Origin: Mustelus asterias
Taxonomy: Eukaryota
Direction of reading: 5' to 3'
Length of the DNA stretch: 64,000 nt
NCBI RefSeq assembly: GCF_964213995.1
Contig: NC_135830.1
Coordinates: forward strand, 8,246,001 to 8,310,000
Part shown: one piece after another, positions 15,184 to 61,491 of the stretch
Layout of the letters: every line of letters begins with the position of its first letter
How positions within the stretch are numbered: position 1 is the stretch's first letter
Translations under genes and position numbers: made by a program
The notes under the pieces: model-generated
What the model was told of the DNA's origin: nothing
What the model saw: only the letters and a program-made list of their open reading frames with translations
The model's database searches: none

Positions 15184-15676
15184 ATGCTTTTGGTCATACT
15201 GGCGGCGCTCTCGCACAGTAAGCACTGGATGATGTTCATCAAACCGGATAAATATATTGATGGCAACTTGATTAACAATCTAAAATATCCATGCGATGCG
15301 CAGAATGGAGGTTCCACAAACTATCGCAGATACAAACACATTTACGTTAACACTTGATATTTCATTCTTCTGCCTTTCCAGACGGGCTGTGCGTAGATCC
15401 AGTAACTCAGTCACCGGTGACAATAACCGCATCGGAAAGGGGCTTTGGCGCAGTTACATTGTAATTAGAGAGAAAAGGATATGCACAGCATGCAATGGTA
15501 TCAGCAGAAACCGGCACAGCCACCGACATGGATTATTTCCAAAATATTAACAATGAAGGAAGATAAAGTTTCAGGACGATATCTGGCGATAGCTAACAAG
15601 TCTAATCAGAACGGTTACCTTAATATCAGCCACCTTCAGTGTGGGGGACGGGGCTGTCAATTACTGTGCAATTAGG
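15184..15676 (+). pseudogene. TCR alpha/delta-type V segment 1 (pseudogene)
   Basis: Leader MLLVILAALSH 15184-15217|gtaag; acceptor at 15381. Exon reads DPVTQSP...AQLHCN...MQWYQQKP...GYLNISHLQ...YCAIR, with frameshifts in FR1 and FR3. Confidence 0.85.
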
Positions 15677-15715
15677 CACAACGTTAGATTACAGTTAAAA
15701 CCCCGTACAAAGACC
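15677..15715 (+). other. 23-bp-spacer recombination signal sequence
   Basis: CACAACG + 23 nt + ACAAAGACC. Confidence 0.85.
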
Positions 15716-16189
15716 TCAGCCATTTTCTACAGGTCCATTAAGTTTGCTTCTGCGAGAATGGTTTGTCCCCGGGTTCACGAAGGCAGTCAGATCTATTTAT
15801 CGGGCATTTTGTCCTGATTGAGATCGGCAAAGAAGCAGTTTGGGAAATCCCCATGCTGCGATTTACATAGTAAGCACGAACCAGGAATATCATCAGCAGG
15901 GTGAACTCAGGTGAAAATATGGCAGGAAATTACAGGCTGTTCTTTCAGAATTGCTAGCTCAAATACCACGACCCCCCCCCCCCCCCCCCCCCCCAGACAC
16001 CGAATCTCCGGTACACTTGGAGTATGCTAAATACTAATTGGATAAAAATCTTAAGTGCTTAACAAATGAGATGTAGAATAACTGCCACATAGACTCACCA
16101 AACAACACGACTATTATTATAAATCCGGGACACAGATGCCTACCCATCAGCACGAAGATAGTCGATTCTCACAGCTGACATTGGTGTAT

Positions 16190-17010
16190 TGTGTGGTGGT
16201 GAGCTGCCTTCTTGAAGCGCTGCCCGAGATGCAGGTACACCCACGTGCTGTTAGTGAGGGAGTTCCAGGGTGTTGACCCAGTGAGCGTGAAGGAATAGCG
16301 ATATATTTCCAAGTAAGGATGTGGAATAACTTGGAAGGGAACCTCGAGGTTGTCGTGTTCCCATTTGTCTGCTGCCCTTGTCCTTCGTGTGTTTGGATTT
16401 TGCGATCTAAAAAAAACCTTGGTGAGTTGCTGCAGTGTATCCTGTAGATGGTGCACACGGCTGCCACTGTTCGTCTGTGGTGGCAGGAATGGATGTTTAT
16501 GGAATGGGTAGCAATCAAGCGGGCTGCTTTGTCATGTATCTTGTCGACCTTATTGAGTTTCGTTGGAGCTACATTCATCCAAGCAAGCAGAGAGTATTCC
16601 ATCACACTCCTGACTTGTACCTTATAGATGCTGGACAGGCTTTGGGGAGTCACGAGGCGTGTTACTCGCCGCAGGATTCATTAGATCTGCTCTGGTAGCC
16701 ACTGTATTAATATTCCTGGGTCCAGTTCAATTTTCGGTCAACTCCCAGGATGTAGATGAGGGTGGGGGTGGGGAAGGGGGTGTGTGTGGGGGCGGGGGGT
16801 GGGGGGGGGGGGTGGAGGTGGGGGAGGTGGGGAGGCGGGAGCAGGGGGGAGGATTCAGCGATGGCAATGCCATTGAACATCAAGGAACGTTGGTTAGATC
16901 CTCTCTTTTAAGAGATGATCATGGTCTGGAACTTGTGCGACGTGAATGTTGCTTGTTTATCAGATCAAACCTGAATATTGTTTAGGTCTTGCGGTATTTG
17001 GGCATAGACC
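16190..17010 (-). mobile_element. LINE 3' fragment (CR1/L2 group) with an internal G-rich tract
   Basis: ORF 16147..16653 has IYKVQVRSVMEYS and HRRTVAA motifs. Confidence 0.8.
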
Positions 17011-17027
17011 AAATGTCTGATTCGAGA

Positions 17028-17320
17028 CATAGAAACATAGAAAAAGGAGCAGGAGGAGGCCATTCGGACCTTTCAGCCTGCTCCGCCTTTCATTACGATC
17101 ATGGCTGATCGTCCAACTCAATAGCCTAATCCTGCTTTACCCCCACAACTTTTGATCTCATTTGCCCAAAGTGCTATTTCTAGCCGCCTCTTGAATGCAT
17201 TCAATGTTTTGCCATCAACTACTTACTGTGGTAATGAATTTCACAGGCTCGCCACTCTTTGGGTGAAGAAATGTCTCCTCACCTCCGTCCTAAATGGTCT
17301 ACCCCGATTCCTCAGACTGT
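17028..17320 (-). mobile_element. CR1 LINE tail
   Basis: ACATAGAAACATAGAA...GGCCATTCGG...AATGAATTTCACAGGCTC. Confidence 0.8.
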
Positions 17321-17577
17321 AAGACAATGCAGTATCATCCTTAAATTAAAGAATGCGGATGATTTTCTCATCACAAAACCCACTCTCACTGAGTGGCTGC
17401 TTCTTCAATCGGATAAGTTATGCCCTGACTGTCAATATGTCTGAGCAAAGCCGCTGTCAGGAATTGCAAAGCCCTGGCAACGGCGCTCACATACTCCATT
17501 TCCTGTTCTCGTTCTGACATGTCTTGCCTGCAGTGTGCTGTTTATTTGATCGCTACAGCAACTGTAAACAGGGGTGA

Positions 17578-17616
17578 GGTTTTTGTACAGTGACTGCCGT
17601 CTTTCCTCTCAGTTTG
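17578..17616 (-). other. 23-RSS with mutated heptamer
   Basis: CAAACTG + 23 nt + perfect nonamer ACAAAAACC. Confidence 0.85.
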
Positions 17617-18034
17617 GGCTCTATCGCACAGTAATATAAACCGGTATCCGTGCTCTCCATGTTTTCAATCATCAACTGGCTCGATTTGTCCGCAGTGGAA
17701 AGTTGCAATTCGAATCGGTCCTTTCTCTCTTTGCCATCCGAGAATCTGCGTATCATCCACTGCAGACCTTGACCGGGCTTTTGTCTGTACCGATACATTC
17801 TGTAAATGCTGGACATATCATAGCTGCAGTTTAGCCGCACCGAATCCCCGCTCTGGGCTGTTCTGGCTATGGGAGTTTGTGAAACTTGGTCCGAACGACA
17901 CCGGTCTATAAAAAAAACATTTAGTCAATTCGGCACTGGAGAAAATGCATTTAAATAGCAGTCTCGACACGTTATAGAGTAACTTTCTTGCACTTACAAA
18001 TTAGTAGAACCATAATAAAATGGAACAGACTCAT
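17617..18034 (-). CDS. TCR alpha/delta-type V segment 2 (open frame, conserved Trp changed to Arg)
   Basis: Leader 18034-17998 MSLFHFIMVLLI|gtaag; exon 17905-17617. Spliced: YRCRSDQVSQTP...VRLNCSY...MYRYRQKPGQGLQW...DRF...DTGLYYCAIE. Confidence 0.88.
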
Positions 18035-19144
18035 TTGCACCGTGGAATACAATAAAAATGTCAATCGGAAAATGGAGCACATCTCACAGCAGAAAGGCAC
18101 GAAGCGAATCAACAACTTCAATATTCCCCTAATGTAAGATGTACCAGAGAAACCTTCAGACACTGGGGTTTTCTGCAATCTGATTGGCTGGAATCAGACT
18201 CTGTTCTTCCGATGTAAGGATGTGTTTGTTGATATACTGCTGCTTCTCTTCCGGGTCACGTGTGAACAAGTCAATTGTTTATAAACCAGGACCCTGTTTT
18301 ACTGCAGTTATTTTAGTTGATAAAAGTGTTTAAAGCCTAACTGTTCAACAATGAAGGCATTGATTTCAAATTGAGGTAATTATTCATGCGAATTCCACCC
18401 AAGTTGCAGTTCAAGTGATCGTTTTAAATACAAGCAGCTCCTCACGCTGCTCAGGTCTGGCTCCGTTATCCTCGGAAACTCTACATTGGGGTCTCAATTG
18501 AAGCATCAACGATTTCGTTGATGTCCTGTACCGTTCTGGTTATTTTCTTTTCTATGCTCATCATCCTCACACTGACAAGAGGAATATCCTGATTTTATTT
18601 ATAACGTCTCATTTTATAATTTCCCCGTGCTTTCCGAAAGGGAAGAATTCGGAAATGTAATGTCGAATATTTACAACCTACAAACAGCAATAGCAACATT
18701 AGCAAGGCGTAGGAATATATTGCGTAAAATATAAACATCCTATTTGTGCTAATAATAATTTGTTTCCATAGTTACTCATTTATTATTTTTTATTTAATAA
18801 AGTTACTGAACACTTTTGTGAGTCTGGAGCTCTTTCCAACATTGAACCCAAACAATCTCTCACTGCCCTCTGGTGGCGCCGACATTAGAAGTAAGTTACA
18901 GCGTCCAAGTATTTTCACCTCCGGGAATCAAGATTGTTTTGAACAATGACCGATCCTAAACTCTGCAACAGTTTTTAAATGTTTTCTCTTTGCATTTTTA
19001 AATTGGAAACTTGTGGTGACGAATCTGTTTTCTCATGGGTTAATCGTCTTCACAATTATTAATTGCTTCATATTTTATCCCACTGCCTCGTCTTTCCTTG
19101 TCCATCTTCCCCTTTGCCATTTAAACTTTCTTACCTTCCACTGA

Positions 19145-19372
19145 ATTTACACATTCTCCCCGTGTCTGCGTGGGTTTCCTCCAGTTGTTCTGGTTTTCTC
19201 CCACAGTCCAAGGATGTGCAAGTTAGGTTGATTGGCCATGATAAATTGGTTCTTATTTCGGGCGATCAGCAGGGTAAAAATGTGGGGTTACGGGAATAGG
19301 GTGGGATTGTTATCAGTGCAGGCTCGATGGGTCGAATGGCCTCCTACTGTGCTGTAGGGATTTTATGATTCT
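19145..19372 (+). mobile_element. HE1 SINE, 3' part
   Basis: ATTCTCCCCGTGTCTGCGTGGGTTTCCTCC...GAATGGCCTCCT...TATGATTCT. Confidence 0.8.
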
Positions 19373-34598: not shown

Positions 34599-34637
34599 AG
34601 TTTTCCTACGGCTGTGGGAATGTTTTCTATCACTGTG
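34599..34637 (-). other. 23-RSS
   Basis: Perfect heptamer CACAGTG + 23 nt + AGGAAAACT. Confidence 0.85.
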
Positions 34638-35367
34638 AGACTGAAAGCGCAGTAATACGCAGCAGAGTCAGTCCACTACAGACCCAATGTATTTAAACTA
34701 GTCACTTTTTTCCCACTCTGGAGTTGCTGCAAAATCTGCTTTATCCTCAGTATCCCAGGAGCTTTTACTCACGATAAATTCCGTTTGTAGATCTGGGAGC
34801 TGTCGATACCAATCTAACTAAAGTTTAGATTTATTTATTTGTCAGAAGTAATGTTTGCATTAACACTGAAATGAAGTTACTGTGGAATCCCCTCGGTCGC
34901 CACACTCCGGCGGCTGTTCGGGTCAATGCACCTAACCAGGACGTCTTTCAGAATGTGGGAGGAAACCACAGCACGCAGATGAAACCCACGCAGACACGGG
35001 GAGAACGTGCAAACTCCACACAGACAGTGACCCAAGCCAGGAATCAAACCCGCGTCCCTGGTCCTGTGAAGCACTGTGCTACCCTGCCGCCAGTGCCAGC
35101 AATAATAGTTGCTGGCTGTGGCATCAAAGGTGCAGGTCATTGTCACCGCTTCTCCTTGTGCCTTAACATCTGAGGAGCGTCGCTGAGTCACAGAATCTTA
35201 GTTAGATCTGGAAAGAGAAGAAATATAATCACATCTGAACAGTTCAGGCTATAGGGTGCTAAGATTTGAACCGTGCTTGATAAATGCGAGAAAAGATTAA
35301 ATGTATTTAATCTCCAAGCACCTGCTCGGAATGATCCGCACACAACCCAGATGCTGAGCAGCCGCAT
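34638..35367 (-). pseudogene. TCR delta-type V segment 3 (pseudogene, split by a SINE)
   Basis: Leader 35367-35322 MRLLSIWVVCGSFRA|gt. Exon from 35207: DSVTQ...GEAVTMTCTFDATASNYY, then the SINE, then LDWYRQLPD..EFI...EDKADFA..LQSGKKVTSL...DSAAYYCAF, with frameshifts and a stop. Confidence 0.88.
34820..35091 (-). mobile_element. HE1-like SINE inserted at the CDR1/FR2 boundary of V segment 3
   Basis: Minus strand GGCGGCAGGGTAGCACAGTG...GGTCACTGTCTGTGTGGAGTTTGCACG...CAGTAACTTCA...AATAAATAAA. Confidence 0.85.
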
Positions 35368-36139: not shown

Positions 36140-37845
36140 TACTTCATTCATTGCTCTTCCTGCCAGATGTGGGGGTTCAGGGAGCATTCTAGTGGCCCTG
36201 ACGGCTATGTCTGCGGTAAGTTTGACTAGCTACAGCTCCTCACACACAGCATGGTTCGGTTGGAGCAGCAGCTGGACACACTACGGAGCATCCAGGGAGT
36301 ATAAAGCATGATGGACACTGGCTTCAAAGAAGTAGTCACAACACTGATCCAGATAGGTCGATGGATGACCTCCAGGAGAGGCAGGCAGGAAATGCAAGAG
36401 TCTCCTGTAGCTATTCCCCTCCCATACATATATACCTTTATAGATTTTGTTGGAGGTTGGGGGCAGATAGACTCTCAGGAGGAAATACCAGCAACAACCA
36501 AGCCTGTGGCAACACAACGGGTTCTGCTGGAGAGCAAGGTCGGGCTAGGTCTTAGCGAGTGATAGTAGAAGGATTCTCGATAGTCAGGGACACAGAATGA
36601 CGTTTCTGAGGCAGCGAACGACACTCCCGGATGCAGTGTACAAGGATCCATGGCTGTCTCTGAGCAGGTACAGGGCATATGAAACGGGAGGGTAAACAGA
36701 CAGATATCATTGCCCACATTGGCGCTAACGACATAAACATGAAGAGGGAGGAGTCCTGCAAAGACGTTTCTGGGAGTTAGGTAGGAACCTACAAAGCAGG
36801 ACCACGAGGATAGTAATCTCAGGATTGCTGCCAGTGCCACGTGCTATTGAGGCTTGTCACTGGGATGTCTTCTGTTGTTTGCAGTGTATATAAATGATCT
36901 GAAGGAAAATGTGGGTGGTCTGATTAGTAAGTTTGCAGATGAAACGAAGGTTGGTGGAGTTACTGGTAGTGCTGGGGATTGTCAGAGGATACAGCAGGAT
37001 CCAGTTAGACTGGAAACTTGGGCACAGAAATGCCAGGTGGAGGTAAATCGGGACAAATGCGAGGTAATGCATTTTGGAGGATCAGATTTAGGTGTGAGTT
37101 ACACTGTAAATGGCAGAACCCTTCGGCACATGAACATACAGAGAGATCTGGGCATGTGGGTACACATCCACCAAAAAGAGGCAACACAGGTGACCAAGGT
37201 GATTAAGAAGGAATATGGCATCCTTACATTCATCGGCCGGGACATTGAGTAAAATAGTTGGAAAGTCATGTTGCAACTATATAAAACGTTTGTTCTGACG
37301 CATTTAGAGTATTGTGTGCAGTTTCCGTTGCCACAGTACCAGAATGACGTGGAATCTTTGGCGAGAGTGCAAAGAAAGTTCACCAGGACGTTGCCTGGTC
37401 TCGAGGGTGTTGGCTGTGAGGAGAGTTTGAATAATCTAGGATTATTTTCACCAGAAGGACGGAGGCTGAGGGAACTGAGAAGACCAGAGGTCTGCAAAAT
37501 TACGAGAGGCATAGACAGGATGGATAGTCAAAGGCTTTTTCCCAGGGCGCAAGTGTCATTTACAAGGGGGGCAGTGGTTCAAGGTGAGAGGGGAAAATTT
37601 TAAGGGAAATGTATAGGAGAAGTATTTCACACAGAGAGTGGAGGGTGCCTGCAACGCTCTGCCAGAGAAGGTTGTGGAAGAAGAGACATAAACAACTTTT
37701 AAGAGGCATCTGGATGGGTGCATGAAAAGGGAGGGATCTAGATCGAATAAGCATAGGAGGTTTTTTTAGTTAGGGCATTATGATGGACATGGACCTGGCG
37801 GACCGAAGGGCCTGTTTTTGTGCTGTACTTTTCCTTGTTCAATGT
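36140..37845 (+). mobile_element. CR1 LINE: ORF1 remnant joined directly to the RT 3' end
   Basis: CSSCQMW and VCGK zinc-finger-like and esterase-like (DS.VR.T, HIG.NDI, ISGLLPVP) remnants to about 36850; then INDL..KFADETK..LEYCVQF and the CR1 tail. Confidence 0.75.
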
Positions 37846-38961: not shown

Positions 38962-40710
38962 TAACTGGTTTGATTCGTAAGTTTGCAGGCGACACAAAGA
39001 TTGGTGGAATTGTGGATAGGGATGATGACTGTCAGAGGATGCATCAGGATATAGATTTGTTGGAGACCTGGGCAGAGAGATGGTAGATGGAGTTCATAGA
39101 ACATAGAACAGTACAGCACAGAACAGGCCCTTCGGCCCAAGATCAAGCTATCCCACTCCCTATCATCCTGGTGTGCTCCATGTGCCTATCCAATAACCGC
39201 TTAAATGTTCCTAAAGTGTCTGACTCCACTATCACTGCAGGCAGTCCATTCCACACCCCAACCACTCTCCGCGTAAAGAACCTACCTCTGATATCCTTCC
39301 TGTATCTCCCACCACGAACCCTATAGTTATGCCCCCTTGTAATAGCTCCATCCACCCGAGGAAATAGACTTTGAACGTTCACTCTATCTATCCCCTTCAT
39401 CATTTTATAAACCTCTATTAAGTCTCCCCTCAGCCCCCTCCGCTCCAGAGAGAACAGCCCGAGCTCCCTCAACCTTTCCTCATAAGACCTACCCTCCAAA
39501 CCAGGCAGCATTCTGGTAAATCTCCTCTGCACTCTTTCCAGCGCTTCCACATCCTTCTTATAGTGAGGTGACCAGAACTGCCCAAAATATTCCAAATGTG
39601 GTCTCACCAAGGTCCTGTACAGTTGCAGCATAACCCCATGGCTCTTAAACTCCAACCCCCTGTTAATAAAAGCTAACACACTATAGGCCTTCTTCACAGC
39701 TCTATCCACTTGAGTGGCAACCTTTAGAGATCTGGGGATATGAACTCCAAGATCTCTCTGTTCCTCCACACTCTTCGGAACCCTACCTTTGACCCTGTAA
39801 TCCACATTTAAATTAGTCCTACCAAAATGAATCACCTCACATTTATCAGGGTTAAACTCCGGAGAAATGTGAGGTAATGCAGAAAGTTCAATCCGGAGAA
39901 ATGTGAGGTAATGCATTTTGGAAGGTCTGATAAAGTTGGGAAATATACAGTAAATGGCTGATCCCTTAAGAGTATTGATAGGCAGAGTAATCTGGGTATA
40001 CAGCTACGCAGGTCACTGAAAGTGGCAACGCAGGTGGAGAAGGTAGTCAAGATGGCATATGGCATGCTTGCTTTCATCAGCCAGGGCATTCAGTTGAAAA
40101 ATTGGCAAGTCATATTGCAGTCTTATTGAATCTTAGTTAGGCCGCACTTGGGAAATAATGTTCAATTCTGTTCGCCACACTACCAGAAGGATGTGGAGTC
40201 ATTGGAGAGGGTACAGAAAAGACTTTCGAAAATGTTGCCTGGAAGGAAGGGCATTAGCTATGAGGAGAGGTTGGAGAAACTTGGTTTGTTCTCACTGCAA
40301 CGACGGAGGCTGAGGGGCGACCTGATAGTCGTCTAAAGGATTATGAGGGTCATGGACAGAGTAGATAATCAGAAGGTTCTTCCCAGGGCACAAGAGTCAA
40401 TTACTAGGAGGCATAGGTTTACGGTGTGAAGGGCAAATATTAAAGGACATTTACGAGGCAAATTCTCTACACAGAGAGTGGTGGGTGCCTGGAACTCGCT
40501 GCCAGGTGAGGTAGTGGAAACAGGTGCAACCGTGACTTTTAAGTGGCGTCTTGACAAGTACATGAATAGGATGGGAATAGAGGGATAATGTTCCCAGATT
40601 GGTCGGGTATTTTTTTCAGTTCAGTCGGGCAGCATGGCCGGTGCAGGCTTTTAGGGCCGCAGTGCCTGCTCTTGTCCTGTAATTTTCTTTGTTCTTTGTT
40701 ATTTGTTCTT
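38962..40710 (+). mobile_element. CR1 RT fragment (host) in the GPCR gene 2 intron
   Basis: KFAGDTKIGG...WAERW.MEF at 38975-39097, resuming as NPEKCEVMHFGR at about 39890; CR1 tail. Confidence 0.8.
39098..39861 (-). mobile_element. Younger CR1 inserted antisense in the host CR1
   Basis: ORF 39143..39916, EFNPDKCEVIHFGR through LLDRHM, is uninterrupted; tail TGTTCTATGTTCTATG. Confidence 0.9.
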
Positions 40711-40856
40711 AAAACGTGAAACCTTCTGGTGTAGATCTTCTGTTAAATATGAGGTTTGTGGGCTTCAATTCAAACGATAATGCCCTGACCAGGATCCGAA
40801 AAGAAAGGCCTAATGTTTGGAATCAGATTTTCAACATTTTTAACCCTCCCTTACAG

Positions 40857-41758
40857 CCAATTTGATGGCTATCGTGATCCTATCCAGAGGACGGTGTGGA
40901 CTGTCCCAGTGCATCACCTACTACCTGGTGGCAATCGCGGTGACTGATTTCCTGGTTATGATTTCTGCTGTCATCCTCAACCGGATTGGTGGCATTTACT
41001 TTCGATATAGTGTCCTCTCCACCACCCCCGGGTGCACGGTCAGCAGCGTCCTGGTATATACCACCCGTGATGGGTCCGTCTGGCTGACTGTAGCCTTCAC
41101 CATCGACCGTTTTGTGGCCATCTGCTGCCAGAGCCTGAAGACCAGATACTGCACCGAGAAAACAGCATTGCTGGTTATCGGAATAGTCTGTGCACTGAGC
41201 TGTGTCAAAAACATCCCTTTCTTCTTCACCTATCAGCCCTTGTATATCCTAGACGGGGTGCCTTGGTTCTGTGATATCAAGTCCACCTTCTACACGTTAA
41301 CCATCTGGCAGGCCTATCTCTGGCTAGACCGCATATTAACACCATTGTTTCCATTCTTCCTGATCCTGCTGCTCAACGCTCTGACTGTGAGGCACATCTT
41401 AGCAGCCAGCAGGGCCCGCAGGAGACTCCGGGGTTCCGAGAGTCGGGGAGACATGGAGATGGAAAACCGCAAGCGGTCTATTGTCCTGCTTTTCGCCATC
41501 TCCCTCAGCTTCCTCCTCCTGTGGGTCATATATGTCGGTCATTTCCTCTACGTACAGATTTCGGGTGAGCCATACTTCACCGGCCTGGATTTCAATGACC
41601 CGCAGTACATCCTTCAGGAGACGACCAACATGCTGCAACTACTTAGCTCCTGCACTAACATCTTCATTTACGCAGTGATTCAGACCAGATTCAGGGAAGA
41701 GATCAAGAACCTGTTGATGTCTCCGTTCGCCACCCTCAAAGGTTTTCTGAAACGGTGA
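40857..41758 (+). CDS. GPR139-like GPCR gene 2, exon 2
   Basis: Acceptor ccttacAG|CC at 40856. 7TM motifs: YLVAIAVTDFL, SVWLTVAFTIDRFVAICC, PFFLILLLN, CTNIFIY; AATAAA at 41874. Confidence 0.93.
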
Positions 41759-42165
41759 AAGACTATAGAAACGTTTGCTTTTCTCAGTTAAAGCCTCATT
41801 ACACATTACCTGCCACCATTGTCTGCCTTCCATCCTAATGTCTCAGTACATGCCACTTTATGTCCGTCAGCTGAATAAAAAAGTCAATGTTTGGGACCCA
41901 CTTCGAAAACCTAAGGACTATAATGCCGGCTAAGAGTTCTCTGTCAACAGAACTGAAGCAGTGCTGCATTGTTGGCGGTTTCTTGTTTGTTGGTCTGATA
42001 CATAACCCATGCAATGCGCCTGCAATCTGAATGAAATTCCAGTGACCTCAGGGTCATTTTGCCAAAGAAGAATGTCAGGAATTTATCCCAGAGCCTTGGG
42101 TTAATATTTATGCTTAATTGGCACCCCTGAACCAATCCCCTGCCCATCAATCTAACTCGTTGCAG

Positions 42166-42313
42166 AGTAAAGCAAAACAGATATCGTGGCTGGAATTTCG
42201 AAATGTGAGAGTTGAAGACACCGTTTCCTATTACGGTGAAGCTCCGTACTGGTATGATGACTGGTCTGGGACTCACAATGGAAGCAACCTGAACAGATAT
42301 CTGTGCAAAATTA
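42166..42313 (+). pseudogene. 3' stub of a NAR/NAR-TCR-like V segment with an RSS
   Basis: SKAKQISWLEFRNVRVEDTVSYYGEA resembles NAR FR3 (L.I..VRVEDT..YYCKA; GGT for TGT); then CACAATG + 24 nt + GCAAAATTA. Confidence 0.55.
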
Positions 42314-43562
42314 CAATATAAATTGTCTGGAAATGGAGAGTGAAGTGCCGTCTTAATGTTATTATCGTTTTAATCAGCTTTAATTTAATTGTAATTTTCA
42401 CAATTCAGTTATAATTGCTGGAATATAATGATAAATATCTGTTTTTTAACCAGTAATCCGTTTATGTCGTTCATTGGAAGGGAACACCCGCAATCACTGT
42501 TACCATAAAGACATTGGTTACAGAGACTCCATTGAGATTCCCCTAAGATGTTAGCAACCAGTGAACCAACACTGAACTCATGTTGGAATGTTAATAACAG
42601 TTACTGAACAATCCATTGAACTAGTGAAAGAATCAACTGTCCCTTTAAATCGCCTTGATCAACATTTCAAACAGTGCACCCCACCCGAAACCTGCTCGCC
42701 CTCTCCCCCCGCCCCCCACCGCCCCAACCACCCCCCCCCTCCCCCCCCCACTCCCACCCCGCCTCGTCCCTCTCGCTATCTTATAGATCTTTTATCCATG
42801 AGGCCTTGAATCCCTTCAACTGCACCATCCAACAATTCCAGTTAATCTTCTTGCTGCATTCTTCCTAAAGCTTTGTTTCACTGTCCTGTTTCGACGACAA
42901 ATATTTATCCGCCGTAAGATTCCGTTCCAGGATTAAATTATCTCAAACCAATTAAACAACGGGAGCTATTGAAGCATTTGATCGAGTCAAAGCTTTCTTA
43001 AGGTGTTGAATATCATCCGAATTCCGATGTTACAGTCAGATCATATTTGTTCTGACCACGGTCTGAAATGTCTTTTAAAAAATCTTAAAAATCCACTGCG
43101 GAAACTGGAAGTCTGAAATAAAGACTGAAAATGCTGGGCTGTACCAGTCGTACTGACAGCATCTGTGGAGAGAGAAAAAGAGTTAATATTTCGAGTCCTG
43201 TGGACTGATGGCTGCAACGGATACAATGGCCGATTGGCTGAAAGGCCTCTTTCCGTGCTGCAAAATCCTGTGCCTTTTATGATCCTATTTCGGAACTGCC
43301 CACCAGTTTATATTATGGAGGCCATTGTCTCTGTGTACATTAGAATCGATCTTGTCTTTGTTACAATTCGTACAGAACCTCTCTGTTTATATTCCAAAAA
43401 AAACACACACTCTTAATACGCTTGACCCTCTTTCAGTATCTACTGAACTGGACCCAGTCTTCCTTCATATCAGTGCAGGTGATGTGTCAATAATTGGTGT
43501 ACTAGGCCTTTTCTTTGTATTATTAAATTGTATTATTAAATTATTAAATTGTATTATTAAAA

Positions 43563-47546: not shown

Positions 47547-47582
<36 letters not shown>

Positions 47583-53387: not shown

Positions 53388-53602
53388 ATGAGGTCGACGA
53401 TATCTCTCAGTTTGTTGCTGACTTTCTTATCCGGTGAGCAGATTTATTGTCCAAGCCTCTCACTGTTACTGTCTCATTGTTATTTTATCTATGGAATGTT
53501 GCAGAGTCAGCAATCATTTCACCAGGGTTAATCCTCGTGTTTTTTGATATATTTGTACAGGTGTCCACTCGGAGATTATGTTCGCTCAGCCAAAGGCAGA
53601 GA
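53388..53602 (+). pseudogene. IGHV: IgM VH leader exon plus truncated VH exon
   Basis: 53388-53433 MRSTISLSLLLTFLS G|gtgag; acceptor tacAG at 53560; GVHSEIMFAQPKAE (shark VH start GVQSE..LTQPEAE), then breaks off. Confidence 0.88.
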
Positions 53603-54034
53603 GGCATCGCTGAGAAGAAACTGATAGCCACGTTCCGCACACACCAGGACGGCCTCAACCGGGATATTGGGTTCATGTCACACTATTTGTAACCCGCACA
53701 GTTGCCTCGACCTGCAGAGTTTCACTGGCTGTCTTGTCTGGAGACAATACACATCTTTTTAGCCTGTCTTGATGCTCTCTCCACTCACATTGTTTTGTTT
53801 CTTAAAGACTTGATCAGTTGTAAGTATTCGCATTCCAACCATTATTCATGTAAATTGAGTTTGTGTCTTTATATGCTCTGTTTGTGAACAGAATTCCCAC
53901 TCACCTGAAGAAGGGGCTTAGAGCTCCGAAAGCTTGTGTGGCTTTTGCTACCAAATAAACCTGTTGGACTTTAACCTGGTGTTGTTAAACTTCTTACTGT
54001 GTTTACCCCAGTCCAACGCCGGCATCTCCACATC
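53603..54034 (+). mobile_element. Penelope-like element 3' end (GIY-YIG C-terminus, terminal repeat, hammerhead)
   Basis: IAEKKLIATFRTHQDGLNRDIGFMSHYL-stop; terminal repeat AAATAAACCTGTTGGACTTTAACCTGGTGTTG...CCCAGTCCAACGCCGGCATCTCCACATC. Confidence 0.8.
53902..53938 (+). ncRNA. Minimal type I hammerhead ribozyme (Penelope type)
   Basis: CAC-CUGAAGA-A-GGGGCU(UAG)AGCUCC-GAAA-GC-UU-GUG: both catalytic boxes, stem II, stem I CAC/GUG and palindromic stem III. Confidence 0.7.
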
Positions 54035-54308
54035 ACGTTCTCTTTTAATCCAATGAATATATGTCATTCAGATAACAGCAGAATGTATTCTTATTATGCC
54101 GGGATAGAAACGGAGAAAGATATGTGAGTTTCTATAGGGGACAATCAGTGCAGAAACCTAAACGATAGAAATAGTAGAATATCAAATTGAAATTTGAAAA
54201 CGAAGCTGTGAAGATAGGATCATAATTGTAGTCGAATTATTAATTCCTTGATTTCTTATTGAACAGAATAACAGAGTGTAATTTGTTCAATCGGTCATTC
54301 TTTGCTCG

Positions 54309-54606
54309 CACCGCCATCTCCGCCTACTCTCTACAGCCTGGTCTCCTGTCAGCAACGCAAGTCCGACGGCTCCATCACCTATGGCTGTTTGGCGATGGGC
54401 TACTCTCCAGAAATCACCAGCCTGACCTGGAAGAAAGAAGGGCAGCCGATCACCACTGGATTTAAGACTTACCCATCAGTCAGAAACCATGATGGGAACC
54501 TCCTCCCTGAGCAGCAAGTTAACCATCACTGAGTCAGGGGGAGCATGCAGCAAAATTAACTGTGAGGTTCGACACAGCGGATCAGACCATAGCATTGAAA
54601 TGCAAT
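54309..54606 (+). pseudogene. IGHM: IgM Cmu1 exon (acceptor lost, frameshifted)
   Basis: [15 protein letters not shown]...[22 protein letters not shown]; +1 frameshift near 54495; continues [15 protein letters not shown]; donor gtaagt; acceptor reads CG, not AG. Confidence 0.9.
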
Positions 54607-54816
54607 GTAAGTATTGAGGATCCTGGGAAGAACAGAAACACTGTTATTAAACTGTATAGAGCCTTGGTTATAACACATATATAGAAATCTCTAGTCCTAC
54701 TCCATGAAAAAAACTACTCTGGTGTCGCCTGACGGCAAATAAATTGTCAAAATATAAGTAATTTTATTTGTTATCAAAACATTCTACAAGAAATGACTAA
54801 CATGTGTTTCTTGAAG

Positions 54817-55128
54817 GTCCGACAGATGACATCCCTCCAACCGTTATGCTCACCGTGAGCTCCAGTGAAGAAATCACAAGCAGCAAAGTTGCAACCATCG
54901 ACTGTTCAATCGTCGGTTTCTATCCAAAGTCAGTGGCGGTGAAATGGCTGAAGAATGGACAACCCATGGATTCAGGAATTATCACCTCTCCCACCTGCAA
55001 AGTGAACGGGAACTCCTCGGCGAGCATGCGGCTGACAGTCTCCGCTCAATGGTTCAGCAAAGCGGTTTACACCTGCCAGGTCACTCATCAAGAACTCACC
55101 CAAATTCGGAACATCACCAGCTCTTTGG
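54817..55128 (+). pseudogene. IGHM: IgM Cmu2 exon (open, AG/GT intact)
   Basis: [34 protein letters not shown]...VYTCQVTH; 312 nt, phase 1/1. Confidence 0.92.
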
Positions 55129-55735
55129 GTAAGAGGCACCGACCATCAACCAATAAATCATTGTGCAGTCCGATGTTAATGAACATCAGGAATTCATTGA
55201 AGTTAATCCAAAGCACAGGACAACTTCTAATTTACTGCCATGTATTTCATTCTGATTTAAGAACTGCATTCGGATTGTTCAACATTTAGGATTTTATCTG
55301 AACAGGAAATAATGTTTCCCTCTACTTTGATATCATATAGTGTGTAAGGTGGACTTGACGTCAGCTTTGGCCTGAGGCATCTCAGAATATTTAGAGAGAA
55401 AGAGAGAGTGTGCCTGACATCATTTTTCAGGTAACAGATTCAGGATAAAGAGTTGAAAAGTGTATCCCGTCTATTCAGTGTGTTTTCCTGAGATCAGGAA
55501 TTGTATATTTGTATTGGGAATGGTGCAATGTTTATTCATTAGAATGAACGAGTTTAACGATGAGAATAGTTTTCACAGGCCAAGCTGATATTCCATTGTC
55601 TATAGAAGATAAAAGGCGACAATTAGAGTTTGATATCTGGAAGTTGATTTATTCCCATTTAGAGAATGAAGGCTGAATAATTCTGTTATGATTCTGAAGA
55701 GGGAACTGGGGTTGAATTTCAGTATCTATTCACAG

Positions 55736-56044
55736 ATTGTTCCCACTGTACTCAGTCCACAGTGACAATACTGCCACCGCGAATGGAACAGGTGTTACTG
55801 GAGGCGACTGTAACATCAACCTGCGTCATTTCTGATTCTCCTTATGGAGTCAGCGTGTCCTGGATCCCAGAAAAGAAGACTTTGAAAGCAGAGATTGCCG
55901 AAAAGCCTGGAGAGGATCCTGACAGCGTGCTCAGCAATTTAAACATCTCGACACAAGCCTGGCTGAGTGGGGCTGTGTTTGATTGCGTGGTGAGCCATCA
56001 GGATCTGCCGACTCCTTTCAGAAATTCCATCCACAAGAAAGAAG
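55736..56044 (+). pseudogene. IGHM: IgM Cmu3 exon (open, AG/GT intact)
   Basis: [25 protein letters not shown]...[20 protein letters not shown]; 309 nt, phase 1/1. Confidence 0.92.
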
Positions 56045-57359
56045 GTGAGTGGAGAGTCATTGTGCCTACTTCCAGTGTAAGTGTCAAGGTGAATATTTAA
56101 TATTCGGTGCATTTCAGGTCTACCAGAATTGGTAATTCCACTAACTAATCACTCTGGGACTGTAGAATTTGTATTGAGGAAATTGAGAAGTAGATGAAAG
56201 AAAATGAACTGAAGGGGTTTTTTTTACATAAAAACTTCCTTGTAAAAAATGACTTTCAACATTTTTTCCCCAAACTTCCTGCAAGTTTACTCTCTCTGGA
56301 AGATTTTTGTTCAATTTTGGGTTTAGGTGGAGTAAGACCATGCACCAGACAACGTAAGAGCAGAAGTAAGCCACTTGGTCCTAGACAAGCCCATTCTGGC
56401 ATGCAGGAAAATCCTGGTTGATCTGACATTGTAATACTCCATTCTACTTTCCCGCCTTATCCCCATAACCCTTGATTCCCTGACTGATTACAAACATGTC
56501 CATATCAGCCTTGAAAATACTTAACGACCCAGCCTCTGCAGCCCTCTGCGATAAATACTTCCTTAGATTCGCTACCATCTGAGAGAGGAAATTCGTCCTC
56601 ATCTCTCTCAACAATGGGCGACCCTTTCTCTGAGATTATACACTCAGCTCCTGGACTCTGCCACAAGAGGCAAAAAAACAGTAAGAGGGTTGTTCCTCTG
56701 ATCGAAGGAAAGATATACTGGCATTGGAAACAGTCAAAAGAAAGTCCACTAAGTTCATCACGGGTAAGGAAGGATTTTCTTATGATGAGAGGAGAGATAC
56801 GTTTGTCCTGTGCTTATTGGACCTTACTGAGACATGTAGGACTCTCGGGAGTCTTGACACGGTAGATGCTGATAGGTCTCCATTTTCATCTTTTTGATCT
56901 GTCCAGTTTCCCAGCTCGGAGCGGAGATGGATACACTTTTCTCTGGGAAATTAATGGGTTGGATTAGGAAGTTTCAGTAATTTACAGCACAGAAACAGGT
57001 CATTTGACCCTACTGCTCTATTTTTAACCTCCGTACCAGACTCTTCTCATCTTCTCCCAGAGGTTCAAGGGAAACAAATAAATGTAATGTACTTGGATTT
57101 CCCAAAGCCTTCAATAAGGAACTGCACTGAAGGCAATTTAATAAGAAAAAAAACCCTTAGTGCTGGTGGTAGTATATCAGCATGGATAGACAATTGGCTA
57201 ACTAACAGAAGACAGAGAGTCTGGATCAGGGTAACATTTCAGGCTGGTAAACTTTAACCAGCGGAGTGCCACCGGTACTATTTCTCTAACATCTGGCTCG
57301 CCGTTTCATTGTGTCCGGAATTCTCCAGTTTATTGACATTTATTCTACATTTTCGGCAG

Positions 57360-57751
57360 ATCCACATCTGTGGGAACCGTCCGTCTCTGTCCTCCTGCCC
57401 TCTGCAGAAGAAGTCTCCGCTCAGAGATTCGTCTCCCTCAGCTACTCAGTGAGACGTTTCTCTCCCCGAGAGATCTTCGTCAAGTAGACCGTCAACGACA
57501 AGCCACTGAATCCTGGGAACTAGAGGAACACCGAGGTGATGGCGAAGATCGGCAATAGCTCCTTCTTCATTTACAGTCTGTTATCCATTGCAACGGAGGA
57601 GTGGGCTAGCGGCGCTTCTTACTCCTGTGTGGTGGGACATGAAGCCATCCCCTTGAAGATCATCAACAGAACGGTTGATAAATCCAGCGATATACCCAGT
57701 TTTGTGAACATTTTCCTTGCACTGATGGACACCGTCAACTCATGTCAATGA
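57360..57751 (+). pseudogene. IGHM: IgM Cmu4 plus secretory tailpiece (two stops)
   Basis: [23 protein letters not shown](C>Y); TAG at 57485 and 57521; [40 protein letters not shown]; internal TM donor GT changed to AT; AATAAA at 57779. Confidence 0.93.
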
Positions 57752-58964
57752 GAATCAAACAGTTGCATTCAAAACTTCAATAAAATAATAAATGACGAAT
57801 GAAAATACCCAATCACTGACCTGATTGTTTTCCATTCTTACTTCCGTTTGATCTCTTTGACTTACATCTGATATTCAGAGAGTGTCGGATCCGTCTTGTG
57901 GAACCAAAGCTCCCACCTCAGATACATCCTGACTTACAGATAGACTGGAGATCATTCATCACAGGATACTGAGATATAACTTCACCAACCTTCCTCCCGC
58001 TGAGCAGAAATCTGACGATTTCCCATTTCTGATGAACAAACACAGCACATTTAGATCTCTGTGTTCCTGTTTCTTTCTTTGTCCATCTCTTTAACCTTGA
58101 CGTCAGCTTGAAGCTGTTGCACCACACCCACTGGGAACTGAAGCGAGGGTCACAAAGAAACATGGAAGAACAAGCCCCCATCAGAGAGAATGGCAGGGAG
58201 TGAAATGATTAACACACTGGACTCCTACTCACCCAACAAAGAGAGGGGAGGGGCATTAGTTTACTCACTGTCCCCCCACTCTCACAAAAAAGAGATGGGA
58301 GCGACATTAGTTAGCCCCATGTACCACCATAAAACAAATACAGAGAGGGCGTTGGGGCATTATTTATCCAACTATACTCCCACTTTCTCAATGAAAAGAT
58401 GAGAACGTTATTATTCAGCCAACTGCACCTCAACAGATGGAGCCAAAAGTAAAAATTGCTCCATCACTGAGAACGGGAAGCGATGACTTCACTATCCTTC
58501 CTCTCCCCAAGCAGGGAGTTTTAGAAAGGAAGAGCTGCCTAATGTAAGGATTCAGTTGCCAACTGAAGATATTGACTTCTGGTTTACTTGCCGCAGATTT
58601 TGAAATCTCATCATGCTAATCTTTTTACTGAATATGCATTTATGCAACATACTTTTAATGTGTTTTAACTCTCTTGTTCCTATTAATCATTTGCTGCCTT
58701 TGATACATCATATTCCAAATTTAAACCAATGATTGAATCCTCCCTGGTTTTCACTGTTCTGTCCTGGAGTTTTCTGAGATGCAAAAATGAATTATTTCAT
58801 TCGGTCAGCTGATGTCACCTTGTCACTCACATGCAAGAAAATTATACACCAAACATTGAAAATATGCTGCATAATTCGTATTGTCAGGTTAATGATTGCC
58901 GGTGAAACTTGGAATACCAGTTAAAAAATACACATAGTGACAATACTGCAGAAAACTGACACAA

Positions 58965-59915
58965 TTACAAGTACACATATAGACATACACATCCACACAC
59001 ATCAACACAAATGCACAAATACAAACACAAATACACATACTCACATTTATGCTCACAAATGCACAGACACGCAAATGTGTACGCATAGACACACATGCAT
59101 ACACCACACAATCACGTATATCCATATGCACATTTATGGATAACACATACAAATACAGACAAACAAATATAGACACAGAAGCACATGTTTGCACAACGCA
59201 CGCACACATACACAAAATGCATACATAAATATGCACAAACGCATTCGCCCACAAAAACACGCACAACACAGGCACCACTGAACACACATACAGAGGAGCA
59301 ATGGCAGTCACACCAACACACCCATACACGCAGATTTAAAAACACAGATTGACATACCCACAAATAAACACATACGAAATTATGCAGATGCACAAATACA
59401 CACATGGGCACACACAAATACACAAATGCTCAAACAGGCACAAAAACAAATACATACACACAAGCAATCAAATTAAATAATCACACACAAACCCGCACAC
59501 ACATACACATACAAACATGCAAGTGCACGCATACATGCACATACACGAATATTTACACAGACCCACACACATAAAACATACATACATATACACAAATAAG
59601 GACAGACACATACACACGTGCAGAGCCACATAAATCTGCGAACACACATACACTGAAACAAATACATATATATTAGCACACGTTAATGCTGAGAGGAATA
59701 CAGATATAAAGACAAACAATACCACACACATTAACACACATAGCACATTATAATCACATATAAGCACATTAGCAGATTATACACAGGCACATAGATGAAC
59801 AGAGAGCAAAACATTCACATGAAAATATGCAGACGTAAGCATTAACATGCTCATACAGAGCAGAACACCACTACACGCATTAGTGCACATGGAGACACAA
59901 ACACATATCAACACA
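58965..59915. repeat. CA-rich low-complexity tract
   Basis: Degenerate (CA)n/(CATA)n; source of the Cys/Val ORFs. Confidence 0.92.
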
Positions 59916-59929
59916 TAGGGTCATCGAGT

Positions 59930-60295
59930 CATAGAGGATTACAGCATGGAAACAGGCCCTTCGGCCCAACTTATCCATGCCGCCCTTTTTTTTAAACCCC
60001 GAAGCTCATCCCAATTGCCCGCATTTGGCCCATATCCCTCTATACCCATCATACCCATGTAACTATCTAAATGCTTTTTAAAAGACAAAATTGTACCCGC
60101 TTCTGTTACTTCTGGCAGCTTGTTCCAGACACTCACCACACTCTGTGTGAACAAATTTCTCCTCTGAACACTTTTGTATCTCTCCCCTCTCACCTTAAAC
60201 CTATGCCTTCCAGTTTTAGACTCCCCTACCTTTGGGAAAATATATTGATTATCTAGCTGATCTATGTCCCTTATTATTTTATAGACCTCTATGAG
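59930..60295 (-). mobile_element. CR1 tail (further CR1 pieces at about 56350-57275)
   Basis: DLIEVYKI..GRHRFKVRG..VWNKLP. Confidence 0.85.
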
Positions 60296-61280
60296 ATCTA
60301 GAACATAGTTATAAAGAACTATCAAGATGTAAATACATACAGTAACGCATTAAGAGACACGCGCACAGACTCAGAGAAATGGAAGTAAACATTAATAGTC
60401 TGATAGAAATGTGGAATACAAAAAGGGGGATCATTACCGAGCAACAGGCACGAACACATGCGCATGTATTACGGGTGGCATTAAGAAATAAGCATAGATT
60501 TCACACAATAATGCAGTCATACACACAGAATTGCAGAAGAATAAAATATACACACTGTTGAAGACGCACAAATACCCAAATGAACATTCATAGGGAAATG
60601 AATACGGACATTAACACTCATACATATTAACTCGGAATCAAAGATTAATGCAGAACACGAGATGCTCATACGCACAGCACAAATATAAAATTTTAAATAC
60701 AAACGGCAAGCAACTGATTGAAATAAAATTCAAACTTGACTATATTAATTGGCACATCCTCTGAAAACTGTCCGTATTATACAATGAACGGACAAATACA
60801 CAGAAGGGGTGCCCTCACTGAGAAACTAGTTAATGATATACTAAACATTTCGAACATAACTAAACATAGAGGATGGGAACTCACATCTGAATTCCTAAAC
60901 AACAAAATTCATAGTTTGCAGATCAGTAGCAATCTGCTAAAATAATCATCATTGATCAGTGAACGTTCCGCGATATCAACTATAACATACTTCAATAAGG
61001 GATAGTGCCAAACTGTTCGAAAATGGACTGATCCTGAAGAAAAATTCTTAAGGACTATCTGACAGATTCTGTCTAAGGAATGCAAATAATGAACAGTTGT
61101 GAAGATAGTTACGGAGATCGGTTACTGAGTCTCCCGAACTTAACAGTAGATATAGTTTAAAAATTAAATTTGAGAATAAATTAACAGCGTAAGAAAGTGA
61201 AAATGTAATATAGAAATAACAATAAAATTTCCTGGATCAATTAAGTAAATTAATTATATTTCCTTGTCTACGTCCCCTAG

Positions 61281-61397
61281 ACTCCACAGACCGCATCTGG
61301 GTTGAAGACAATGAGGATCATAATGGCAACAGATGGACAACCGCTTCCGCGTTCATCGTCCTAATCTTCCTAAGCATTTTCTACAGCATCGCAATCA
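61281..61397 (+). pseudogene. IGHM: IgM TM1 exon (3' end and donor deleted)
   Basis: ccctAG|(D)STDRIWVEDNEDHNGNRWTTASAFIVLIFLSIFYSIAI, the conserved antigen-receptor TM motif WTTAS.F..LF..S.FYS. Confidence 0.88.
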
Positions 61398-61482
61398 GAA
61401 GGGATTTGAAAAGCCCCTAAATGTTTCCTTGATTAAAAACTTTTTAAATCATCTGCTTCATTATTTTATCTCTCTTTTCCAG

Positions 61483-61491
61483 CTCAAATGA
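61483..61491 (+). pseudogene. IGHM: IgM TM2 exon
   Basis: ctcttttccAG|CTC AAA TGA (LK-stop; canonical VK-stop). Confidence 0.7.

Follow-up and report, generated by a model that had tools for sequence, protein, structure and literature searches.

Genes and features of the window

The stretch analyzed in this study (the window) comprises 64,000 nucleotides of Mustelus asterias (assembly GCF_964213995.1, NC_135830.1, positions 8,246,001-8,310,000). It is free of N and lies on a 20-Mb scaffold, labeled C71 below. The window contains three pseudogenized TCR alpha/delta-type V genes (V1, V2, and V3), a fragment from the 3' end of a NAR-TCR V exon (the NAR stub), and an IgM pseudogene (Table 1). No TCR J or C was found in the window, as the original prediction had stated, nor in the 100 kb on each side of it.

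Table 1. Features of the window, with positions counted from its first nucleotide.
Feature	Position	Strand	Details
V1, TCR alpha/delta-type V pseudogene	15184..15715	+	leader 15184-15217, V exon 15382-15676, damaged 23-RSS 15677-15715
V2, TCR alpha/delta-type V pseudogene	17578..18034	-	leader from 18034, V exon 17905-17617, 23-RSS 17616-17578
V3, TCR alpha/delta-type V pseudogene	34599..35367	-	23-RSS 34637-34599; repeat at about 34821-35101
NAR-TCR V exon, 3' fragment	42164..42257	+	matched best by NAR-TCR Vs in DNA and protein
D-like 16-mer fused to the V end	42258-42273	+	followed by a decayed 3' 12-RSS of a D, 42274-42301
NAR-TCR D-J intergenic remnant	42302..42640	+	local alignment
IgM leader and first ~13 VH codons	53388..53602	+	leader 53388-53433; cut by a many-copy repeat, 53611-54040
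C-mu exons of the IgM pseudogene	54308..57751	+	translations; Pfam C1-set for CH2 and CH3
CH1	~54308-54606	+	frameshift
CH2	54817-55128	+	
CH3	55736-56044	+	
CH4 and secretory tail	57360-57751	+	stops at 57485 and 57521; first Cys lost
IgM TM exon (shortened) and TM2 exon	61281..61491	+	compared with the open TM exon at C71:7.08 Mb

V1, V2, and V3 each have a split leader, a V exon, and a 3' RSS with a 23-nt spacer. Their places agree with the three TCR alpha/delta-type Vs predicted originally, but the signals are not intact and the genes are not functional. None of the three combines the open frame, Cys/Trp/Cys, and usable RSS of a functional V. V1 has two 1-nt insertions relative to its intact paralogue L021 and a CACAACG heptamer. 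The frame of V2 is open, but Arg replaces the conserved Trp and the heptamer reads CAAACTG. V3 contains stops, is interrupted by a repeat of ~280 nt (seen in the alignment to the intact paralogues L143 and L146), and has a broken RSS nonamer (AGGAAAACT). A strict RSS scan of the window passed only the RSS of V1 among the three; their intact paralogues carry good 23-RSSs. For V1-V3 and the NAR stub alike, intact paralogues were found at 75-88% DNA identity. V1 is present in five copies (100% identity), V2 in seven (96-100%), and V3 in six (98-100%).

The assignment of these Vs to a receptor class differs in firmness. In the tree, V1-V3 fall outside the IgH-like clade (100/100) and the NAR-TCR clade (100/100). 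The V3 paralogue groups (99/97) with the V of P0060, which is spliced to C-delta in a gene model of another shark. A grouping with light-chain or non-rearranging Vs, which would have spoken against the original prediction, is thus not seen for V3, while V1 and V2 are weakly tested in this respect: in the same tree, which holds no IgL, TRB, or TRG rows, they fall in no placed class. Their top atlas matches are TVA11-named clusters (0.96 and 0.97), with TRG, TRB, and IGL clusters close at 0.94-0.96. V2 matches the Pfam V-set with E=4.7e-15; a protein search of V2 against longer proteins passed none of 54 candidates. The PDB search with the V1 paralogue was dominated by multi-V antibody constructs and was uninformative.

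The IgM pseudogene begins with a promoter, leader, and V start that match the same part of the IgM at C71:7.06 Mb with 80% identity across 689 nt. The body of the V is missing, and no D, J, or RSS was found for this IgM in the window. The four C-mu exons, the secretory tail, and the TM exons are all there, three of them damaged, and the protein identity to an open C-mu set is 75-85%. What had been taken for a whole embedded IgM minilocus at 53-61 kb is therefore only a promoter, a leader, ~13 V codons, a repeat, and a damaged C-mu. A functional IgM was rejected given the absence of V-D-J and the presence of stops.

The NAR stub and its V-D join

The V part of the NAR stub consists of the last ~30 codons, in which the second Cys is lost; the leader and the 5' part are absent. 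Seven NAR-TCR V rows score best among 29 rows, and the top PDB match of an intact paralogue is a VNAR (E=9.6e-19). The V end is fused to a D-like 16-mer and its 12-RSS, so the NAR-like V remnant predicted at 42.2 kb is real and on the plus strand, but it is more than a V remnant. The DNA behind it resembles the D-J intergenic regions of NAR-TCR cassettes, with local alignment scores of 200-216 against at most 151 for shuffles, while V-D regions score no higher than shuffles. No J and no match to a supporting V-delta was found 3' of the stub in the window. The paralogues consist of a NAR-type V, one D, a J, and then a leaderless supporting V-delta with a 23-RSS, a full set that the stub does not have. 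Judged by these comparisons, the stub is a relic of a NAR-TCR cassette and not a complete cassette. No RNA record is listed for its region.

The V-D interval of 391-430 nt that is present, with both RSSs, in all 15 unjoined paralogues is missing from the stub. The distance from the anchor to the 3' heptamer is 63 nt in the window, and the V coding end plus D measure 62-69 nt in 15/15 unjoined paralogues. The junction was judged by a two-diagonal comparison, as a single-gap global alignment split the gap and was dropped. The best split point shifts with the paralogue used, between positions 39 and 62 on a span of 103 nt. The V part is ~80% identical to the paralogues, and the join is so old and diverged that P and N nucleotides are unreadable.

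The same junction is found in six of six block copies (see below). Among four read runs across it, two (X2 and X3, from two samples of one study) bridge the junction, X3 without any difference; X4 ends 3 nt before it and X5 extends only 16 nt beyond. X3 stems from a different sample than X2. X2-X4 belong to a single study, and the sample behind the assembly may be that of X2. The join is present in inherited DNA, since it recurs in six diverged copies whose RSS is decayed and is bridged in two samples. Because the V-D interval is missing, the junction is the same in all six copies, and it is seen in a second sample, we regard it as likely a RAG join made in the germline.

Placement and copies of the block

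Scaffold C71 carries C-delta at 7.14, 11.04, and 12.27 Mb, C-alpha with 34 J-alpha motifs at 18.42 Mb, and C-mu in several places. The nearest TCR-delta C and the TCR-alpha C, whose location the original prediction had proposed to determine, thus lie on the same scaffold as the window at distances of 1.1 and 10 Mb, respectively. An isolated orphon, one of the two readings proposed originally, fits poorly and was rejected given that C-delta and C-alpha share C71.

The order of V1, V2, V3, NAR stub, and C-mu is kept on C88, C160, C447, and C770, while C444 has V3, NAR stub, and C-mu only, co-linear with the window. The block is thus present in six places, the window included. The copies elsewhere have 94-100% identity to pieces of the window, and pairwise identity among copies is 98.1-99.97% across 2-3.4 kb. 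Two alleles cannot account for six copies, and the co-linearity of the copies identifies the block as a segmental duplicate. A scaffold chimera between 36 and 53 kb, which had been named as a possible refutation, was accordingly rejected, and the suggested co-duplication of B- and T-receptor parts is confirmed on five other contigs. The block in the window is a dead, segmentally duplicated part of the shark antigen-receptor complex, of an already published kind.

NAR-TCR cassettes and joins in the genome

A pattern search of the genome gave 40 NAR-TCR V matches. Of these, 15 show no join at all, a second V-D join is common to 18, a third join occurs in one, two are D-J joined, two have other irregular joins, and in two neither D nor J lies within 1.1 kb. 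Independent joins of the type found in the stub are present in supporting V-delta and in no fewer than two further NAR-TCR lineages. The pattern search for supporting V-delta gave no match, and these exons were retrieved by position instead. Many NAR-TCR cassettes of this assembly come with a D-delta, J-delta, and C-delta of their own in a space of about 16-58 kb. A signal joint was found at C110:113.7 kb, and the single-copy joins on C110, C90, C173, C850, C401, and C138 could represent rearrangements from lymphocytes that entered the assembly.

C-delta copies and miniloci

The assembly contains 19 C-delta exons, all open, with 14 distinct sequences, or 18 when 1-kb flanks are included. They form two subtypes that are ~10% apart in the exon and >20% in the flanks. 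In a PDB search, human TCR delta chains make up nine of the ten best rows. Most copies are found in miniloci of NAR-TCR, V-delta, D, J, and C. The V-D-J-C layout was mapped at C71:7.09-7.14, 11.02-11.05, and 12.22-12.27 and on C850 and C436, and in these five copies a D and three to five J precede C-delta. Two of the three C-delta on C71 come after an IgM cluster. The C-alpha loci, with >30 J motifs, are separate from C-delta; C-alpha was located via its TM exon, as the Pfam PF09291 search for C-alpha passed none of 17 candidates and was silent in control genomes too.

Three copies of one subtype (C119, C96, and C436) have a common pre-joined supporting V-D and differ from each other at 22-30 of 1510 nt. 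On C138, an IgM VH with D1 (99.65% identical to C71:7.06 Mb) is fused to D-delta, ahead of J-delta. The bearing on the exchange of V genes between Ig and TCR that was claimed originally thus holds, albeit through loci outside the window (IgM beside D-delta and C138).

Sixteen of the 19 exons lie off the main scaffold on short contigs, and three groups are identical in the exon (C115/C123/C138, C71:11.04/C110/C3311, and C71:12.27/C850), with C850 being identical to C71:12.27 over 2.3 kb. Some copies are therefore alleles or false duplicates, and seven loci are a safe floor. The three copies on the same scaffold have different neighbors.

Proposed origin of the block and of the multiple C-delta

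Taken by itself, the window is a pseudogene block of a type already in print, and its genomic context is of greater weight. For the window, we are largely confident in a dead duplicated block that contains three TCR-type V pseudogenes, a NAR-TCR fragment with a likely RAG-joined V-D, and an IgM pseudogene in which V body, D, and J are missing. Directly observed are the damage to the pieces, six co-linear copies, a scaffold shared with C-delta and C-alpha, and the lack of the V-D interval; the mechanism that follows is inferred. In this complex, IgM clusters would adjoin TCR V segments and NAR-TCR cassettes, and all would be copied jointly in blocks of tens of kilobases by birth and death. RAG in germ cells would have joined V to D in the ancestor of the stub, later deletions and repeat insertions would have removed its 5' half, its J, and the IgM V-D-J, and the dead block would then have been copied again recently. 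The same copying would multiply D-delta, J-delta, and C-delta and turn TCR-delta into many miniloci. If an IgM cluster is upstream in the same orientation, a regular 12/23 deletion would place an IgM V on C-delta.

For the genome, the evidence leans, with some reserve, towards a multi-cluster TCR-delta. At least seven and up to 19 miniloci of NAR V-D-J, V-delta, D, J, and C-delta would lie among IgM clusters, megabases from TCR-alpha and off the single-translocon plan. Germline RAG would have fixed V-D joins both in NAR V (the stub and a second family) and, in three clusters belonging to a single C-delta subtype, in supporting V-delta, which would be a convergence on marsupial TCR-mu. The IgM V-D that germline RAG would have fused to D-delta in one cluster would be an inherited Ig/TCR chimera.

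The multiple C-delta and the joins could mostly be an artefact of haplotigs, false duplicates, and lymphocyte reads, with a single true translocon as in other sharks. The many C-delta matches off the main scaffold and the identical exons fit such an artefact, and so do the many different single-copy joins and the C110 signal joint, which resemble lymphocyte products. We nevertheless consider it unlikely, given the distinct exon and flank sequences, the two subtypes, the different neighbors of the three copies on C71, the supporting-V/D junction common to three diverged copies, and the stub join in six copies and a second sample.

Still less probable is that the V-D interval of the stub was lost by an ordinary decay deletion instead of RAG, with the 12-RSS beside the V by coincidence. 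The block is rich in deletions (V 5' half, J, IgM V-D-J) and the junction is too diverged for hairpin marks, but both ends lie within about 6 nt of the coding ends, both signals are gone while the D is kept, and like joins recur in the other lineages mentioned above. We give hardly any credence to a germline-joined IgNAR V in an IgNAR/IgM orphon outside the TCR system. NAR-TCR V and IgNAR V are close, and the best PDB matches of the paralogue are VNARs; the best DNA matches (75-83%), however, are single-D cassettes, several of them followed by a leaderless supporting V-delta, and the DNA downstream of the stub aligns with the D-J intergenic DNA of NAR-TCR cassettes, the one class included in that comparison.

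Comparison with known systems

Interleaved TCR V, NARTCR V, and Ig genes have already been published (main text and Table S1 of PMC12227049). The elasmobranch AgRC (Flajnik et al. 2025, PMC12227049) is described, in the accessible part of that source, with IgM genes, some of them labeled ‘IgM (missing V)’ or ‘IgM pseudo?’, interleaved with TCR alpha/delta-type V exons and NARTCR V over megabases on the TCR C scaffold. On chr27 of the white shark, TCR V, NARTCR V, and ‘IgM (missing V)’ are interleaved (PMC12227049), and a white shark gene is labeled ‘NARTCR V(gj)V(gi)V’ in the same text. C71 bears IgH clusters and TCR alpha/delta C on one scaffold, one of the traits of an AgRC. Where the accessible text calls TCR alpha/delta a translocon, however, this assembly has minilocus C-delta, and where Table S1 gives at most one delta-C-bearing model per species, it has 19 C-delta exons.

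NAR-TCR is a doubly rearranging TCR delta in the descriptions available from PMC5931798, PMC6795676, and PMC12227049. The paralogues of the stub follow this plan, whereas the copy in the window is a V-D-fused fragment without J or supporting V. RAG-like germline joining is reported for shark Ig (PMC2193156, seen in part), and germline-joined shark Ig (VD-J, VDJ, and VJ; PMC2193156, PMC5192425, PMC6795676, as far as these texts were accessible) has inherited coding-end joins, a partial VD-J state, and copying after joining in common with the join of the stub. The segments here are TCR, and the window copy is dead. The marsupial TCR-mu clusters, [Vmu-Dmu-Jmu-Vmuj-C] in the accessible text of PMC7615758, likewise encode a two-V-domain, delta-derived chain in repeated clusters with their own C, and the pre-joined supporting V of one shark C-delta subtype is a further likeness. 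The marsupial and shark clusters are not homologous. According to the same text, V-muj is completely joined and is ascribed to retrotransposition; the shark supporting V has a join to D alone and has yet to be joined to a J.

We found no published report of multiplied C-delta clusters, of their shared supporting V-D join, or of IgM D fused to D-delta in a literature search that did not include several primary NAR-TCR papers; the accessible part of PMC10787021 holds nothing on the number of C-delta. The available text of PMC6795676 and PMC12227049 presents translocons as the arrangement of shark TCR genes and clusters as that of shark Ig genes. Should C-delta really be multiplied in clusters like those of IgM, the division between clusters and translocons would not be set by receptor type and would be switchable within sharks. 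Delta would then also escape deletion by alpha rearrangement and would need its own exclusion among loci. Trans-rearrangements between IgHV and TCR-delta are known, and the IgM clusters directly upstream of D-delta offer a concrete route for them. With the multi-copy V-D joins, germline RAG activity would reach beyond shark Ig to shark TCR.

Receptor segments in the window and their copies

The window carries a dead duplicate of an already published kind of Ig/TCR mixing; one feature is unusual, a TCR segment whose V and D were likely joined in the germline. The larger significance lies beyond it, in the surrounding TCR delta clusters and joins: TCR delta near the window is apparently organized as clusters beside IgM, and within this organization inherited joins appear to affect at least three segment lineages. 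TCR alpha/delta-type V exons are located between IgH clusters in Flajnik (2025; PMC12227049), and in Table S1 of that paper white shark chr27 carries an interleaved series of NARTCR V, TCR V, ‘IgM (missing V)’ and ‘IgM pseudo?’ entries. The mixing pattern of the original prediction is thus already published. A further entry, ‘NARTCR V(gj)V(gi)V’, shows that a germline-joined NAR-TCR (doubly rearranging TCR delta, with a NAR-type V-D-J followed by a leaderless supporting V-delta) had already been flagged, from a gene model.

The window contains no N, and six-frame translation placed three V-type exons (V1 to V3), a NAR-like fragment (the stub) and a C-mu set where they had been predicted. No piece of this block can produce a receptor. 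The V exons carry the lesions listed in the table. Of the IgM, the promoter, the leader and roughly 13 codons of V remain; they match an IgM at 7.06 Mb on C71, the scaffold bearing the window, at 80% over 689 nt. A repeat comes next, and then CH1 (frameshift), CH2, CH3, CH4 (with stops at positions 57485 and 57521) and a TM exon that is cut short. Rhodopsin-family 7TM reading frames are copied along with the block, and the window also contains broken LINE-type reverse transcriptase stretches.

Locations of the features discussed (plain coordinates refer to the window; C, contigs; L, stretches of the same assembly)
Feature	Location	Strand	Description
V1	15184-15715	+	two 1-nt insertions vs. intact paralogue L021; heptamer CACAACG
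V2	18034-17578	-	open V-set exon (Pfam E=4.7e-15); conserved Trp to Arg; heptamer CAAACTG
V3	35367-34599	-	exon split by ~280-nt repeat; stops; nonamer broken
Stub	42164-42257	+	NAR-TCR V 3' fragment
Stub RSS	42274-42301		decayed 12-RSS
7TM frame (PF00001)	2124-3083	-	open, ~300 codons
7TM frame (PF00001)	40844-41758	+	open, ~300 codons
7TM fragment (PF00001)	~7654-7814	-	
Further 7TM copies	C71:8.359 and 8.407 Mb		
Reverse transcriptase	8880-11337	+	broken; PF00078 for 9325-10407
Reverse transcriptase	36851-37603, 39143-40003	-	broken
Downstream V	C71:8,324,147-8,324,451 (L088)	+	open; good 23-RSS, to 8,324,490
Delta cluster	C71:7.085-7.142 Mb		NAR V-D-J, supporting V-delta, TCR V, two IgH-like V, D-delta, five J, C-delta with hinge and TM
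Delta cluster	C71:11.0 Mb		VDJ-joined IgM, TCR Vs (one joined to D-delta), four J, C-delta
Delta cluster	C71:12.22-12.27 Mb		layout as at 7.085-7.142 Mb; no IgM within 24 kb upstream
Joined IgM VH	C71:10,998,800-10,999,300 (L149)		VDJ-joined; in-frame insertion in framework 1; full C-mu set downstream
Paired 23-RSSs	L009:7480-7580; C71:7,091,239-7,091,340		61 nt apart, 3' of supporting V-delta
Signal joint	C110:113,660-114,800 (L041, L116)		head-to-head, D-delta 12-RSS/NAR V 22-RSS; also NAR V end joined to inverted J signal
Shared V-D junction	L175:1871-2200, L176:7590-7918, L067		C119, C96, C436; in frame
Chimeric join	C138 (L186, ~9000-10000)	-	IgM VH and D1 fused to D-delta; J-delta and C-delta next

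In a 29-row tree without IgL, TRB and TRG rows, which V1 and V3 entered via intact paralogues, all three Vs fall outside the IgH-like and NAR-TCR clades. V3 groups (99/97) with a V that a Pristiophorus gene model splices to C-delta, and V1 and V2 take no firm place. Protein-atlas matches lean to TCR alpha without separating the classes, and the longest single-domain cover of V2 in the PDB comes from TCR alpha chains. The intact paralogues belong to arrays of mixed orientation whose Vs carry 23-RSS, the arrangement expected of alpha/delta V fields.

Four other contigs (C88, C160, C447, C770) carry V1, V2, V3, the stub and C-mu in unchanged order, and C444 carries V3, the stub and C-mu, likewise in order. 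These six copies, 98.1-99.97% alike over the compared stretches, imply three or more loci in a diploid genome and exclude a one-off scaffold chimera between 36 and 53 kb, which the original prediction had named as grounds for its rejection. C71 is 20.4 Mb long, and the window occupies its positions 8246001-8310000. The 100 kb upstream of the window gave no V or C probe matches, and the 100 kb downstream contain GPCR copies and three further TCR-type Vs, one of them open, 14 kb beyond the window between two broken Vs; no D, J or TCR C was found in this downstream stretch, nor a TCR J or C in the 100 kb upstream.

A likely germline V-D join in the stub

Beyond its six copies, the nearest matches of the stub (69-83%) are cassettes that combine a NAR-type V (22-RSS), a single D flanked by 12-RSSs, and a J; in several of them a leaderless V-delta follows. 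The top PDB match of such a cassette V is a VNAR, the V-V layout is also found in gene models of many sharks and one ray, and the cassettes match NAR-TCR as outlined in the published descriptions.

The stub V end continues directly into a 16-nt D-like stretch and then the decayed 12-RSS. In the window a fixed anchor lies 63 nt from the 3' heptamer; in all 15 unjoined paralogues the V coding end and D together account for 62-69 nt, and each of these paralogues carries an extra 391-430 nt, including two RSSs, between V and D. Past the stub RSS, the sequence can be aligned to D-J intergenic DNA (scores 200-216 vs. at most 151 for the best of 30 shuffles), and no comparable alignment was obtained with V-D regions. 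The fusion likely represents a germline RAG join, with no assignable P or N nucleotides at the junction. The junction is identical in all six copies. Among four sequencing runs compared (X2 to X5), it is bridged in X2 and in X3, a different sample of the same study (42105-42303, zero differences), while X4 coverage ends before it, at 42254. X5, from another organism, spans 42020-42273 with six differences, reaching just 16 nt beyond the junction, and weakly hints that the join may predate Mustelus asterias as a species. Shark Ig has been shown to undergo RAG-like joining in germ cells (PMC2193156), and a germline-rearranged TCR is reported from catfish (PMC6170632); marsupial TCR-mu is presented in PMC7615758 as the only TCR with a germline-joined V.

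All 40 matches to a NAR-TCR V pattern in the assembly were inspected; the six stub copies, which the pattern does not detect, are additional to them. Fifteen are fully unjoined and 18 share one V-D join (12-RSS recognizable in seven, decayed in 11). The others comprise a separate V-D join (one), D-J joins (two), a D joined to unrelated DNA (one), a V joined to an inverted J signal (one) and two Vs lacking both D and J within 1.1 kb. On C110, the signal joint and the NAR V end fused to an inverted J signal together resemble an excision circle that has reinserted, or an inversion. Two gene models, P0009 (basking shark) and P0013 (white shark), have an identical peptide across the V-to-J junction; at the level of gene models, this would be consistent with a germline-joined NAR-TCR VDJ that has been conserved.

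Apparent TCR delta clusters beside IgM

The C exon of gene model P0004, whose top PDB matches are human TCR delta chains, has 19 matches in the assembly, three of them on C71 (7.14, 11.04 and 12.27 Mb). A TM-exon query returned the same 19 C-delta and two weaker matches, which are C-alpha behind J motif arrays at C71:18.42 Mb (34 motifs) and on C546 (240 kb). The two C-alpha exons clearly differ, each with a long J-alpha array upstream, and are either paralogues or very divergent alleles; no C-delta was found in the 90 kb ahead of the C71 array. The nearest TRDC and TRAC, which the original prediction had proposed to locate, thus comprise C-delta 1.1 Mb upstream and 2.7 Mb downstream of the window and C-alpha 10.1 Mb away. 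An IgM V-D-D-J-C-mu cluster lies directly upstream of the delta cluster at 7.085-7.142 Mb, on the same strand.

In PMC12227049 TCR alpha/delta is treated as a translocon, and no species is listed with more than one model bearing delta C. Our literature search, whose scope left out Criscitiello 2006 and 2010, Deiss 2019 and Ott 2021, returned no shark with multiple C-delta clusters. A protein search with the C-delta exon, too insensitive for counting C-delta in other species, gave 10 among 80 candidates (eight models labelled Mustelus asterias and one each from two other sharks); database proteins that match the C-delta exon of the assembly exactly bear the Mustelus asterias label.

The main doubt is that the many C-delta copies and joins reflect assembly redundancy together with captured lymphocyte rearrangements, which can account for identical copies and single joins. 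Every one of the 19 C-delta exons has an open frame, and they fall into two subtypes that differ by about 10%. Fourteen are distinct (18 with 1-kb flanks), a diversity that such an origin cannot explain; even with two different alleles per locus, 14 exons still require seven loci. Nor can it explain junctions common to diverged copies. One supporting-V/D junction is common to three C-delta copies of the divergent subtype (C119, C96, C436) that differ at 22-30 of 1510 nt.

For 11 of the 19 C-delta copies an unjoined supporting V-delta lies behind a NAR V on the same contig (the stretch up to C-delta was read for two of these). Besides the three copies with the common junction, two have single joins (C850, C401), one has a TCR V joined to D, and one has no V in the part examined. 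The remaining copy, C138, with IgM VH and D1 fused to D-delta, is an Ig/TCR chimeric join in DNA that the 12/23 rule permits; it occurs once and may be inherited or somatic. The supporting V-delta joined to D-delta on C119, C96 and C436 parallels marsupial V-muj.
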